Shown here: positions 7,341-35,362 of the stretch, piece after piece
How the letters are laid out: every line of letters starts with the position of its first letter
Position numbering within the stretch: the stretch's first letter is position 1
Assembly (NCBI GenBank): GCA_951406725.2
Contig: OX597816.1
Location: forward strand, 67,580,001-67,644,000
Length of the DNA stretch: 64,000 bases
Source of the DNA: Octopus vulgaris
Taxonomy: Eukaryota
Reading direction: 5' to 3'
The notes under the pieces: model-generated
Told to the model about the DNA's origin: nothing
Seen by the model: the letters and a program-made list of their open reading frames with translations, nothing else
The model's database searches: none
Translations under genes and position numbers: made by a program

Positions 7341-8483
7341 TGTATGAAACACAGAAATACTAAAAAAGAAACATGGAAAAAAACTGCTCTTTTTCTTTCC
7401 CCATGAAGAGTGAGGCGCACAATACGAATCTCTCCGTATTTCAAATCACATTCACTGAGAAATGTGAATGAACGAAGATTTGGTAAATTTCTACAGCTAC
7501 ACCTGTTTGTCTTCGGGTTGGGCGATAGTTTACCTAAACAACAAGTAATTTTCGACGTTTTTGATAGTCAGATTCGTTCAAAACACACTAAAATACCACA
7601 GGAAAAACACATTTCCTCTTTAAAGGGTGTGTAGAATGGCTTGTAGTCCTTCATTCATTTCCTTTGGCACTGTATAATATATCCATGTATTATGGCTTTC
7701 TCTTATTATTTTGTTAGATGCGATCGTGCGGCGTACAAGAGGAGACCTTGTCACCAAACTCCTTACGTACGGTCGATATATATATACCTACAGGTGTAAT
7801 AGTAAACATTTACCTAAAATTGTTGATGTGTAATAGGACAAAGAACACTACACTGACAAAACGATCAGGTGTTTACTCCTGCATACGAGAGGACAATGTG
7901 GTGAACTCGGTTAATGAAGTTGTAAATAATAGCCATGGATTGGTCAATTCCAGGTTGTGAACAGTCAAAATTTATATAAATAGTTATGTTGCGGTTGAAG
8001 TGATGTAGCACCGGCACAGACTCACGTGTTAAGTGTTTGAAATTAAGCTGACGTATATCCGATAAAATAAATAAATCTTCAGGGGTGTATCAACACCTTG
8101 CAAGCATTTAGATATGATTTATTAACATGGTACAAGTCATATGAAGTTGGTCATGAATTACAGATATACACGTAGAGTCAACCTGATGAAAAAAATATAA
8201 TGCAACAAGCTAGTAACTTGATATCAAAAGCTTAGCACAGGGACTGGGTTAAACCCAGGAACATATAAAGGCATTGCTTCATGTCTGCCTTCATATACTG
8301 CATGTCTGAATGACCATGTAGTTGTTATAGCAACTTGGTGAGAGTGGAGGCAATCATTCTGGGCTGATGTATGAAACACAGAAATACTAAAAAAGGAAAA
8401 TGAAAAAAATCTGCTCTTTTTCTTTCCCCATGAAGAGTGAGGCGCACGATACAAATCTCTCCGTATTTCCAATCACATTCACT
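7341..8483 (+). repeat. ~115-bp direct duplication (7341-7456 and 8368-8483)
   Basis: TGTATGAAACACAGAAATACT...CCATGAAGAGTGAGGCGCAC...AATCACATTCACT occurs twice with few differences. Confidence 0.9.
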
Positions 8484-8719
8484 CTCCAATAAACTGCGCG
8501 ATCTTACTTCCAAAATAACTATAGAACAGAGTTAAGCTTTCATCGAACCAAGCCTCGTGAATCGGTTATGATCTCCGGTTTTATCTATTCATTTCGCTTC
8601 ATTTATGTCACTAATACATTTAAAGTGATAAATTTATGTAAAAAATTATAACTAATGTTTCTGTTCCCGATAATTTCGATAGTAAATGTAATGTCACAAA
8701 GTACGAGCGAACAGAAAAG

Positions 8720-8972
8720 GCTAACTATTTAAATTAAAAAAGCGTCCTTCCGTGGCGTTTGTCTTTAAACGTTTTCCATACGTTTAGAAACTGTAACCAG
8801 TCAGTTGCGTTCTGCTGTCTGGTGTTGTCACGTAAACTTATTTATCGTTCACTTTGTTATTTTATTTCAAGTGTTTAATATCGTTTGCTTTTTAGGATAC
8901 AATATCCATCAATATATTCATATACGTTGATATTCTTGAAATAATAAGCCTGGACTTCAGAATACAACAGAT
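8720..8972 (+). promoter_or_regulatory. Candidate core promoter and 5' UTR of the EB1-like gene
   Basis: Inr-like TCAGTT at 8801 in locally CpG-containing sequence. A pyrimidine tract plus TAG at ~8885-8896 could be the acceptor of a small 5' UTR intron. Confidence 0.3.
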
Positions 8973-10298
8973 ATGAGTGCAAATAATTGTTTCAAAATTG
9001 AACATGTCAGTAAAGAAGATTTGATTATTTGGTTCCGTCGTACAGTTTCTCCGAAGTTCAATGCAATCGAAGACCTATGGTCTGGATCCGATCTTTGCTT
9101 AGGAATGGAAATACTTTTCCCTGGCTCTGTTGATTTACGGAATATAAAGATTGACAGACTTACAGAAAACGATCGGCGCCATAATTTTACTTATCTTCAA
9201 ACAGTTTTTGAGAAAAATGGTGTTGAAAAAGAGATTCCCGTTGAAGATATTTTAAAAGGAAATTTTAAGAGTTGTTATCAGTTTGGGCAATGGTTCCGAT
9301 CATTCTTTCTGGAGAATTATCAAGGCCAACCTTATGATATAAACCAAATTAGAGCCTCATGCAAAAAGAAAAAGTTCAAGAAAAGGGCTACAAAATCTCA
9401 AAATAGAGAACATTCTCAAGATACAAAGGACTTCTCTGAAACGAATGCTCAGTCACCAGTCGACAAAAACAAAGAAGAAACCTCGAAATCAGGGAATCAC
9501 CGTGATAATGAATCTGTTCATAAAAACGCTATGATTCAACCGCCGAAGATATTCGTCAAATCAAAGAATTTGGCTGTGAATAATACGTTTCGGGTTCAAA
9601 ATGTAAGCAAAGAAGATTTAATTATTTGGTTCCGCAGAGCAATCGCTCCGAAATTGTCCAGCATTGGTGAATTAGGAACCGGTGTCGATTTTTGTGTTGG
9701 TATAGGAATATTATTTCCTGGCTCAATTGCTTTTGAAGATATAAAATTCAGTCCTGTTACCGACACGGATAAACGCCAGAATTTCAAATGTCTTCAAGCT
9801 GCTTTTAAAAATTTTGCAGTCGATAAGGATATTCCAGTGGAGAACTTAATAAAAGGAACCTTTAAAGGGAATTTCTTCTTCGGAAAATGGTTTAAAGCAT
9901 TTTTTCACGCAAACTATAAAGGTCAAACGTATGATTTGTGTCGACTGCGTGGTTTGGGTAATAATAATTACAACAAAAACAACAGAAAGAGTCATTGTTA
10001 TGAAAAATGTGAAAGGGAGAATTCCGGTCAAGGTGACGCTTGCAGGAGAAATAGTGAATCTGGTGTTGAAGCGATGGCAAAACATGTTGAGTGCCACCGT
10101 AGATGTAAGTTGATATTAGAAAAGGAATCCCAAACAGATTTGGACTATGAAGCTGATATGAGCGACAAAGACAGGGAGTCGGATAATAACAAGATAGAGA
10201 AACTTTCTGAAAAACTGCAACGGATCGAAACTATTTGCAGGAATAATCCAGACGAAGGAATATGTCTAATGATATGGAAAGTACTCGCAGAGGCTTGA
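8973..10298 (+). CDS. Divergent EB1/MAPRE-family microtubule end-binding protein with two tandem calponin-homology domains (441 aa, single coding exon)
   Basis: Only long non-repetitive ORF in the window. Two copies of an EB1-type CH domain (SKEDLIIWF...LFPGS(V/I)...NF..LQ..F....V(E/D)K(E/D)IPVE..(L/I)KG.F....F..WF..FF..NY.G..YD) match EB1 SRHDMLAW...LFPGSI...NFKILQAGF...VDKIIPVDKLVKGKF...WFKKFFDANYDGKDYD. The C-terminal KLQRIETICRNN...IWKVL resembles EBH KLRNIELICQEN...IVDIL. An AATAAA lies at ~10344. Confidence 0.92.
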   Translation: MSANNCFKIEHVSKEDLIIWFRRTVSPKFNAIEDLWSGSDLCLGMEILFPGSVDLRNIKIDRLTENDRRHNFTYLQTVFEKNGVEKEIPVEDILKGNFKSCYQFGQWFRSFFLENYQGQPYDINQIRASCKKKKFKKRATKSQNREHSQDTKDFSETNAQSPVDKNKEETSKSGNHRDNESVHKNAMIQPPKIFVKSKNLAVNNTFRVQNVSKEDLIIWFRRAIAPKLSSIGELGTGVDFCVGIGILFPGSIAFEDIKFSPVTDTDKRQNFKCLQAAFKNFAVDKDIPVENLIKGTFKGNFFFGKWFKAFFHANYKGQTYDLCRLRGLGNNNYNKNNRKSHCYEKCERENSGQGDACRRNSESGVEAMAKHVECHRRCKLILEKESQTDLDYEADMSDKDRESDNNKIEKLSEKLQRIETICRNNPDEGICLMIWKVLAEA

Positions 10299-10847
10299 TT
10301 GGATAAAACTGAATAGAGTATGACAGAAAGATATTGTGAATGAATAAAAAAAGAAAAGTTGTTCTTTGAATTGGAAAAAGAATCCAACAATAATCATTAT
10401 GTACTCTTCACCAATGCTGAAGAAATATCCAATGTTGATTTGGAAACATTAATTCACACAACATTGCTTATAAATATCGGACATTCAAAGAAGCATTTTG
10501 TTATATAGTGAACGGGAATATTGTCAGTCTTTAGAAATGTTTTTTACAAAATCATTTCAAGATTAGCTGTTTAATGTAAATTTAAAAATATTAATATTAG
10601 TAAATATTTTTCTCCCTGTTGTAGCTTTCATGTGTATTTGGTTTAAATATTACACTTCAGTATATAATTATAGTTTATCATAAATGTATATATTGTTAAT
10701 CCGTTCCTTTACTGCAAAAGTTCAGGTATGACCTTTCATTTTACAAAAGGAAAAAATTTATCTTTTTCTTTTTCAATTATTATTTTTTTTTCATAAATTT
10801 TGATTCTATTTGCATCTGTAATATTGAACCTAAATTTATATGCTATT

Positions 10848-25859: not shown

Positions 25860-26325
25860 CTAAGATTTATTGCCAATTCTTCAACTGATAATGCAGGATT
25901 TTCTTCAAGTAATGCCTCAAGGAGCTTATCATCAAACTCAACTGGACGTCCTGTTCGATCTTCATCTTCGAGGCTAAAATCTCCACTTGTGAATTTTGCA
26001 AACCATCTTCTGAAGTTCTTTCATTCAAGCATTCTTTCCCATAAACTGAGTGTATGTTTCGAGTCGCTTCGGCTGCAGAGTTTCCTTTTTTGTACTCATA
26101 AAGCATTATATGCCTTAAATGCTCTTTGAATACTTCCATGTTAGAAAGGGTTTTAATCAAAGAAATTTTAATTCTATTATTCTGTAAAATAATTCTTAAT
26201 TAGTTTAAATGTACACCAATGCATATAAATAATTTTAAATTCCATTAGACATTCTAAACTACTATTAAATTTCATTTAATTTAAAAAAAAGGTAAAATCG
26301 GACAGAACTTATGGGATGACCTGAT
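25860..26325 (-). mobile_element. Mariner 5' fragment (TIR plus HTH domain)
   Basis: KEHLRHIMLYEYKKGNSAAEATRNIHSVYGKECLNERT is a mariner N-terminal HTH. TIR-like TCAGGTCATCCCATAAGTTCTGTCCG lies upstream on the minus strand. Confidence 0.88.
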
Positions 26326-33115: not shown

Positions 33116-33808
33116 AAGGAATTCGATGAATTGTGAAATGAAAGCCGGGGCAAGCAGAAGTTCCGTTTATAATTCAGTTTTTGTATGCCGATCGGCCAAC
33201 TGCAGCGTTAAGGAAACCTATTTATAATGTGCTCGCAGTGACTGTTGAAGAACTGTTTACACTTTTGAAACCTGCCATGAATTACATTAACCACACACGA
33301 AACATGCAAATCTTGCACACAAGCTAAATGCTAGATAAATATTATTTTTGTGATATCCATTACCATAAAGGCTTCCAGTCATGTTAACTTATTCCACTGA
33401 GCTGACATAAAATTGTACAGGCGAGACCCATATCGTTGTAGTGTGGATGGCCTTGTGTGAGTAGTGTTCTTTCTGGTAATTTACGGTGCACCAGCTGCTG
33501 GAAAACAGCGTATGGTGTAGCGTTTGTTTATATTGAATTTTTATTATGTTATTCTAATCTCTGTCATAAGTAAGTTTAATGAGTTTACCAAACAAGAGTT
33601 TAAGTAGGAAATACGTCTGGGTGGACTGCATAAGGTTACAGTTAGTGATGCTCAACGAATGTTAAGCAGTCTATTCCACTTGATTACTAGAGTATGGTAG
33701 AGGTTTGTATTTTATACTTGGCCTATAACTTGACCCTATGTTTTAGATAATTTTTTATAATAATAATAATAATAATAATGTCACTTTGATGACATGCACT
33801 GCTTTCTC

Positions 33809-33873
<65 letters not shown>

Positions 33874-33874
<1 letters not shown>

Positions 33875-35362
33875 GCACTAATACTACTCTCAAGTGAACT
33901 GAACAGAACAGGATATGGCTATAAAATTGACAACAGGAAAATAAGCCATCTATTTTATGTGGATGATTTAAAACTATATGGCAAAGATGATGAAGAGCTT
34001 GAAGGACTACTACATACTGTGAAAGGATTCAGTGATGATATCGGGATGGAGCTTGGTCTTGAAAAGTGTGCCAAAGCCACTTTTAAGAAAGGGAAACTGG
34101 TAAAGTCTAGTTCAATCGAATTAGATGTCGAAACAGTAAAAAAGGAACTTGAGCAGGAACAAACCTATAAATACCTGGGAATAAATGAAGGCTCTGGTAT
34201 CCAGCATGCAAGCATGAAAGAGAAGGTTAGGAAGGATTGTTATAGAAGAGTTCGAGCAGTCCTGAAGTCTGAGCTGAATGCATATAATAAGGTGTTAGCC
34301 ATAAATTCCTTAGCAGTACTAGTTGTTCTATGTAGCTTCAATGTGCTTAACTGGAATACCAGTGAAATAATGAAAATTGACAGAAAAATCCGCAAGCTAC
34401 TGACTTGTAATAAGAGACACTATCCAAAGGCAGACGTGGATCGTCTTTACCTTCCCAGAACTTAGAGAGGTCGAAGTTTGATCCAGCTTGAACTTACATA
34501 CAAAGCCACCACAATCGGACTGGCCAAATACCTTGAAGCAACCAATGATTGGATGCTAAAAGTTGTTGAAAAACACGAAAGACCGAAAAAACTTCACTCT
34601 ATTCTCAAAGAGAGCGAAAAATTCGCAGCTGATCTCTTAGATACTCATCAGATTGATCAGGCTGAAGGAAATGTATTTCCATTGGACAATATGTCGGCAT
34701 TATAGAATCAAAACCGCTGACAAATGGTATAAACACCATCCTGAAGCTATGACTAAGGGAGAAAATGTGTCGATTCTATGGGACTTCCCCGTACAGACCG
34801 ACAAAACTATAAAAGCTAATAAACCGGATATTATTATAAAAGATCAGACAAAAAAGATATGTTTATTAATTGACATGAGTATTCCTTGCAATCACAATGT
34901 AGCGGCGAAATAATTTGACAAGATTAGTAAATATAAAGACTTGCTAATAGAATTTGAAAAAATGTGGCATCTCAAGGCGACTACAGTACCAGTGATTGTA
35001 GGATCTCTAGGAATGATAAAAAAAGGTACTGAAACCTATTTGAAAATGATTCCAGGCTTACCATCCCTACAGGAAGTGCAAAAAATCGTATTAACCGGAA
35101 CGGCTCATGTACTGAGAAGAGCATTATCGCTATGAAAACAACATCCATTCATACTCTTTTATTCTCTTTTACTTGTTTCAGTCATTTGACTGTGACCATG
35201 CTGGAGCACCGAATTTATTTATTTATTAATTTTTAAATACATATTTTATCTGTGAATTTGCGCGTGTAATCTGGGAATGCATACAATGAGCTTCTCTGCC
35301 CTAGGTGTATGGAAAACACTCGGCGAGAAACGGAAGAAAATTTGAAGAAAGAAGGAAAAAAC

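Follow-up and report, generated by a model that had tools for sequence, protein, structure and literature searches.

Introduction

Proteins of the EB1/MAPRE family, among them human EB1 and EB3, Bim1 and Mal3, carry a single N-terminal CH domain of the EB1 type, a basic linker, a coiled coil, an EBH with a pocket for SxIP motifs and an acidic EEY/F tail. Dimerisation, which fly EB1 and Bim1 cannot do without, boosts the binding of EBs to microtubule tips, and EB linkers, which are basic and 60–80 residues long, aid binding (PMC3154886). The SxIP pocket of the EBH is formed by the aromatics F216-Y217-F218 and Y247 (PMC12695022). In Mal3, the exchanges K63D, K76D and Y56A weaken microtubule binding and Q89E impairs end tracking; with Q89A the protein binds more strongly and along the whole microtubule, and with Q89R it binds the lattice and no longer tracks ends (PMC3368265, PMC6459531).

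Diverged relatives are described from Drosophila. Mst27D is a spermatid-specific, retroposed relative of EB1 with a CH domain that binds all along microtubules only if two-headed, and bundles them; CG15306, CG32371 and CG2955 are further testis-specific EB1 paralogues of the fly (PMC10359004). With this precedent, lineage-specific EB1 retrogenes are unsurprising in themselves. Two CH domains also act together in the tandem-CH actin-binding domains of spectraplakin and plastin/fimbrin and in the CH pair of Ndc80/Nuf2 (PMC5800807, PMC3154886). The tandem CH of PMC5800807 was considered as a precedent within EB1 proteins and rejected, as the module described there is the actin-binding module of Shot. 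For octopus spermatids, a perinuclear, manchette-like microtubule sleeve has been described, and PMC3004946, where it treats the link of this sleeve to the nucleus, names it as an open question. Here we analyse an octopus gene that combines a pair of EB1-type CH domains within a single polypeptide.

Results

An intronless gene encoding a pair of EB1-type CH domains

The window, i.e. the whole stretch of 64,000 nucleotides of Octopus vulgaris DNA under analysis, contains a stop-free frame at 8940–10298 of 452 codons from stop to stop, 441 of them from the ATG at 8973. This is the longest among 61 frames of at least 100 codons in the window, the runner-up having 228 codons, and 30 base-shuffled versions of the window yielded frames of up to 215 codons. 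Pfam CH was matched twice in the 441-aa ORF (8973–10298, forward strand; E 4e-12), and all 13 PDB sequence matches are EB1, EB3, Bim1 or Mal3 (best E 3e-29), as they were again with the second CH domain as the only query. The preliminary description of an uninterrupted 441-codon ORF with two EB1-type CH domains was thus confirmed. No actin-binding CH proteins were among the PDB sequence matches of the ORF or of CH2, and fimbrins appeared only as low-TM Atlas rows (TM 0.22–0.29 by query). The whole-protein Atlas matches were EB1/CH clusters, all below 0.9.

Twenty-five of the 60 other frames in the window were run against Pfam, and two of these gave a match. These are a LINE-type reverse transcriptase (RVT_1) fragment at 33779–34462 (forward strand, in a 228-aa frame) and a mariner/Mos1 transposase HTH fragment at 25870–26199 (reverse strand). 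Both are fragments, in line with the earlier statement that every neighbouring transposon ORF is broken, as far as these 25 frames go.

CH domains and linker

CH domain 1 (aa 9–122; 8997–9338, forward strand) and CH domain 2 (aa 209–322; 9597–9938, forward strand) align with canonical EB1s without gaps at 35–42% identity and, again without gaps, share 62 of 128 residues (48%) with each other. In EB1 numbering, CH1 carries T in place of K76 and R/N in place of K59/K60 and has a net charge of −4, while CH2 retains K76, carries E/D at K59/K60 and has a net charge of +3; K89 is kept and Q102 is replaced by K in both. Positions 63, 76, 56 and 89 of Mal3 were assigned to K76, K89, H69 and Q102 of EB1 with an offset of 13 derived from the end points of the alignment, the position of the gap in which is our assumption. 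At positions 76, 89, 69 and 102, CH1 accordingly reads T, K, N, K and CH2 reads K, K, T, K. R17-H18 are K-E in both domains and K98 is kept. A change at Q102, to K or to another residue, is common to most octopod paralogues and is therefore a family trait.

The two domains begin with an identical segment, as had been noted earlier; at the protein level VSKEDLIIWFRR is the same at 9006–9041 and 9603–9638. At five of its 12 codons the two copies differ by silent changes, on the ground of which a recent gene conversion of this segment was rejected. Since 31 of the 62 identical CH1/CH2 residues are likewise encoded by different codons, the copies must be old.

The linker (aa 123–208; 9339–9596, forward strand) has a net charge of +11 and begins with a basic patch, KKKKFKKRATK at 9363–9395, which is retained in Argonauta. 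It places 86 residues between the CH cores and about 70 (aa 131–200) between the conserved blocks, in agreement with the charged linker of some 70 residues first noted. To our eye, the conserved KKKK(F/Y)KK patch resembles a nuclear localisation signal.

A remnant of the EBH

A search of the tail with PF03271 (Pfam EB1) gave no match. A profile derived from the tails of six EB1s and paralogues matched aa 413–438 (10209–10286, forward strand) at 14.6 bits, a score reached by none of 2000 shuffles (maximum 10.3), and matched the Argonauta tail, in which the segment is conserved, at 17.8 bits. Two CH matches and a weak match to the EB1 C-terminus had been expected of profile searches; Pfam delivered the former, and the latter appeared with the custom profile and not with PF03271. 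We regard the segment as a remnant of the EBH helical hairpin. The equivalents of L221, I224, E225, C228 and L246, which belong to the bundle core, are retained, and the residues of the SxIP pocket are replaced, F216-Y217-F218 by K-L-S and Y247 by A. With this pocket lost, recruitment of SxIP-containing +TIP partners by the octopus protein is predicted to be lost as well.

An upstream coiled coil was not found. The region is acidic and polar and poorly conserved relative to Argonauta, and a crude heptad score amounted to 0.38–0.50 in three orthologues as against 0.75 in three canonical EB1s. The acidic EEY/F tail is also absent, the C-terminus being KVLAEA here and KILADD in Argonauta. The tail alone returned nothing significant from the PDB (best E 0.31), and in an Atlas search it led to EB1 C-terminal clusters at 0.78, which is a lead only. 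A predicted structure of the full chain, based on a four-sequence alignment, had a mean pLDDT of 37 and a pTM of 0.23, with only the tail hairpin (residues 405–440) at 61–65, and was set aside because of this low quality. The hairpin remnant may allow self-association of the protein.

Conservation, probable transcription and selection

The same two-CH layout is present in O. bimaculoides (97% identity; annotated as uncharacterized LOC128247397), in a third assembly (93%) and in Argonauta hians (73%). Identity to Argonauta is distributed unevenly, with 113/130 residues in aa 1–130 (CH1; 87%), 42/70 in the linker (aa 131–200) and 118/127 in aa 201–327 (CH2; 93%). In the tail it is 30/83 over the first part and 20/31 over the last 31 residues.

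Independent contigs of two sequencing runs, X17 (8418–10243, two differences) and X15 (7900–10624, three differences), bridge the junction between the two CH copies. A misassembled join, for which the preliminary description had asked raw reads to be inspected, is therefore ruled out. Run X1 contains parts of the gene only, at a depth of 3–6. In run X4, which comes from a related species, one 2055-nt contig at a depth of 206 and free of joints corresponds to 8640–10616 (forward strand), and the DNA-like runs X15 and X17 extend beyond both of its ends. This suggests an unspliced transcript, the RNA status of X4 being a guess. AGTAAA at 10599 is a possible poly(A) signal. The probable 5' leader contains four upstream ATGs, at 8636, 8655, 8686 and 8691 (window 8636–8693), by which translation might be controlled. 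Translational control is common in spermatid mRNAs.

Among the 40 listed differences of X4 (of 68 in total), 28 lie in the ORF, extending to codon 391. With 21 silent and 7 replacement changes, dN/dS is 0.077 (p 4e-10), and it would be 0.41 (p 0.001) in the worst case that all 28 unlisted differences were replacements. Within CH2, the listed differences comprise nine silent changes and no replacement. The ORF contains a single one of the 12 listed indels (13 in total), with a length of 3 nt. Together with the domain-biased conservation relative to Argonauta, this bears out the earlier proposal that selection maintains the gene, for which a dN/dS near 1 together with a lack of transcripts had been named as the contrary outcome. 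The ORF is almost certainly a real gene, and it is under purifying selection.

That we are dealing with a processed pseudogene, or with an artefact joining two copies, is exceedingly improbable in view of the low dN/dS, which stays below 1 even in the worst case, of the contigs bridging the junction, and of the two-CH protein recurring in O. bimaculoides, Argonauta and a third source. None of the runs that hold the gene is recorded as RNA, as such an explanation would have it, and four O. vulgaris runs guessed to be RNA contain next to none of its words; neither observation is evidence either way.

A family of intronless EB1-like genes

The canonical EB1 gene, on contig C9, is interrupted within its CH by three GT-AG introns, after codons 40, 53 and 89 of the domain, and encodes the EBH in an exon of its own. 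At least nine long, single-frame EB1-like ORFs in the genome read through all three of these intron positions, and short or decayed copies come in addition; these counts are lower bounds. Besides the gene at 8973, the long ORFs are located on C19 (369 aa), C16 (301 aa), C13 (312 aa) and C2 (494 aa), on C5 at 137.8 Mb (313 aa) and 17.29 Mb (428 aa), and on C3 at 181.74 Mb (761 aa) and 181.71 Mb (376 aa). The protein of one of these paralogues matches an Octopus vulgaris entry at every residue. The gene at 8973 is hence one of a family, a point missing from the preliminary description. The paralogue at C5:137.8 Mb contains CH, coiled coil and EBH above the Pfam cut-off in a single frame, which is expected of a copy of a spliced mRNA, so that the family is likely to stem from a retroposed EB1. 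We consider it very probable that EB1 was retroposed and that further duplications followed. An intronless, EB1-derived and probably retroposed gene had been proposed, and the three CH introns of the parent, none of which occurs here, speak for this. The two-CH gene may go back either to a retroposition of its own or to DNA-level duplication of an older retrocopy. A blastn comparison of the gene with the parent locus showed no DNA similarity. A poly(A) remnant or a target-site duplication would not be expected to survive at such divergence.

The member at C5:17.29 Mb is a second two-CH gene (G000 C5:17287095–17288066; L018, L043; P0020; P0022 in O. bimaculoides), annotated as RP/EB family member or as uncharacterized. 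Like the gene at 8973 it consists of a single exon with two EB1-type CH domains, here about 110 residues apart; conserved counterparts exist in O. sinensis and O. bimaculoides. It differs in having an N-terminal extension and no tail after CH2, and its domains are only 24–32% identical to those of the gene at 8973. In trees it groups with the C2 gene, in a clade apart from CH1 and CH2. A single clade of all four tandem CH domains was rejected (p-AU 0.0002, in a tree from which near-duplicate orthologues were left out and to which a long-branch warning applies); therefore, the two-headed layout arose twice.

Several further EB1-like loci were seen. The two genes on C3 (C3:181706294 and C3:181744359; L008, L007/L042) are single-frame genes on the same strand, 38 kb apart, with long coiled-coil tails, and the 761-aa gene, whose neighbour has 376 aa, is annotated as 'interaptin-like' in O. 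sinensis. A half-CH copy (C13:10760205–10760351; L038), a local duplication of CH-coding DNA, follows the C13 paralogue at a distance of about 230 bp from its stop codon. On C7, a tandem array (C7:37711009–37716366; L012–L017) with a period of about 520 bp comprises at least 10 copies; a 119-codon frame in each of them encodes the first half of a C16b/C19b-type CH domain. A 229-codon frame on C16 (C16:3808834–3808932; L047) has a coiled coil and an EBH-like end with no CH in frame, and is possibly a paralogue consisting of the EB1 C-terminus only, or a last exon. Beside a decayed CH copy at about 44.038 Mb of C16 there is a frame of 327 codons (L044:3883–4863), which we take to resemble a transposase of the hAT/GTF2IRD2 type.

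Origin of the two heads

In phylogenetic trees, from which the broken copies C16b and C19b and a fluke sequence were left out, CH1 and CH2 fall into one derived clade together with the domains of seven paralogous lineages (support 100/99). The branch leading from canonical EB1 to this clade is long, with 0.7 changes per site. This supports the claim that both CH copies originated after the divergence from canonical EB1. The earlier scenario of a retrocopy that later duplicated internally is probable in its first part. Its second part is neither supported nor rejected, as CH1 and CH2 as sisters obtained p-AU values of 0.505 and 0.429 in two trees; a third tree, from which clade-B rows were left out, joins them at 67/64. 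Judged from the alignments and trees, the two copies may have arisen by internal duplication or by a fusion of two paralogues, and conversion may have acted locally.

The two heads might have come from fusion of neighbouring paralogues, or from a local segmental duplication with read-through, followed by conversion of the first helix or by shared constraint on it. The protein would then have the same function as the lattice cross-linker proposed below. Over EB1 positions 34–125, CH1 and CH2 have 44/92 residues in common, which is within the range of their identities to other paralogues (34–51/92), CH2 sharing 51/92 with the C16 paralogue and CH1 46/92 with the C19 and C5 paralogues. Moreover, paralogues do occur in local pairs, as on C3 and behind the C13 gene. 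Against this stands the stretch of positions 7–33, in which CH1 and CH2 share 17/27 residues (21/27 in Argonauta) and only 5–11/27 with the other paralogues, as well as the tree that joins them and an AU test on positions 34–125 in which their clade was not rejected (p 0.096). We regard such a fusion as a serious possibility, although we lean against it.

Distribution

Two full CH domains were found in one of 120 listed (of 129) EB1-type proteins of 351–2000 aa from other organisms, a survey biased towards canonical-like domains, in which diverged tandems would have escaped notice. The exception is a 1662-aa catfish model with DNMT3-type domains, in which the CH copies are 1300 residues apart. 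Most of the 43 rows with multiple hits among the 120 were rejected as tandem CH; they are arthropod EB1 models repeating only the C-terminal third of the domain. We presume that these partial repeats are alternative exons. Word-limited protein searches (15 and 14 matches) returned octopod or unassigned sequences and two EB1 matches from outside, and in a metagenome scan none of 592 pattern matches was confirmed. In the literature searched we found no earlier description of this gene, of an octopod family of EB1 retrogenes or of a natural tandem-CH EB, and no EB matches in the supplements of two octopus gonad papers (PMC11202624, PMC6341066). To that extent, the two-CH single-chain architecture and the octopod EB1 expansion appear undescribed.

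Discussion

With canonical EBs the octopus protein shares the EB1-type CH, the basic linker and a C-terminal hairpin derived from the EBH. It departs from them in its two CH domains per chain, its single exon, the exchanges Q102→K and R17H18→KE, and the absence of the coiled coil, of the FYF/Y247 pocket and of EEY/F. The gene is most aptly classed among derived EB1 paralogues, not as a canonical EB. Its relation to Mst27D and the other fly paralogues is one of type, as these are also diverged, retroposed EB1 relatives that form a lineage-specific set with similarity mostly in the CH domain; Mst27D, as described, differs in having one CH, dimerising through a coiled coil, binding Nup358 and having originated independently (PMC10359004). 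The tandem-CH actin binders are of other CH subtypes, and the CH domains of the octopus protein are separated by a long linker predicted with low confidence.

What might such a protein do? We propose, at roughly even chances, that it is a multivalent lattice binder which cross-links (bundles) or stabilises microtubules, rather than a tip tracker or a recruiter of SxIP partners. This proposal derives from the residue at 102, the sensor position, which is Lys in both heads and thus basic, as in Mal3 Q89R. Each CH domain would occupy the EB site between protofilaments, and the basic 86-residue linker would add electrostatic affinity and let the heads reach two sites on the same or on a neighbouring microtubule. 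Q102→K would abolish the preference for the conformation of the GTP cap, leaving two individually weak heads that are blind to the nucleotide state, with tethering supplying avidity for the lattice. Through weak dimerisation, the EBH hairpin may raise the number of heads to four. Several observations argue against lattice binding. K76 is missing from CH1 and an aromatic at 69 from both domains, at positions where K63D and Y56A weaken the binding of Mal3. Both domains have E at H18, K59/K60 are E/D in CH2, and CH1 carries a net negative charge. Also, Lys at 102 differs from the Arg and Ala tested in Mal3, and the change there is family-wide.

The preliminary description saw in the protein a possible single-chain pseudo-dimer, in which two CH domains replace the EB1 dimer; on this reading, the protein would track plus ends autonomously and recruit no cargo. 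The importance of dimerisation for tip binding and the likeness of the linker to the basic, 60–80-residue linkers of EBs would fit this (PMC3154886), as would the loss of the coiled coil and the retention of K89 in both domains. However, the sensor Q102 in helix H3 is Lys in both, and RH of the SRHD motif reads KE (PMC3368265); the sequence, by Q102→K, argues against autonomous plus-end tracking. The heads are joined head-to-tail, presumably unlike those of a dimer, which are joined C-terminally. As the EBH hairpin has been conserved, the protein need not act as a single chain and may not be a pseudo-dimer in place of a dimer. The idea has thus been weakened, and we hold it to be distinctly unlikely. 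Slightly more room, although still as an unlikely case, is given to repurposed CH domains with little microtubule binding. The protein would then be an adaptor, for example a nuclear or perinuclear one acting through the lysine patch, which we likened above to a nuclear localisation signal, or a dominant-negative partner of EB paralogues acting through the EBH remnant. The loss of several tubulin-contact residues, the acidic CH1 and the long branch to the clade would agree with such a change of use. The strong constraint on both CH domains and the retention of K89 and K98 do not, and the diverged CH of Mst27D still binds microtubules (PMC10359004).

Given the precedent of Mst27D and the perinuclear microtubule sleeve of octopus spermatids, a role of the lattice cross-linker in spermatids is attractive, and by analogy with the fly protein its use at that sleeve is possible. 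Taken to its full extent, the picture would be that octopods gained about ten single-exon EBs by retroposition and built a two-headed EB twice, and that the gene at 8973 encodes a lattice cross-linker, four-headed if the EBH dimerises, which organises the manchette-like sleeve shaping the sperm nucleus, convergent with Mst27D of the fly. As a whole we put this forward tentatively and think it unlikely to hold in every part.

EBs gain avidity by dimerising a chain with one CH. A natural chain with two, evolved twice under strong selection, is a test of the contributions of valency, linker and the Q102 sensor, and makes it possible to address what decides whether an EB tracks tips or binds the lattice. 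For the cephalopods themselves, the octopod EB1 retrogene family provides candidates for linking perinuclear microtubules to the nucleus in spermatids, the question named as open in PMC3004946.
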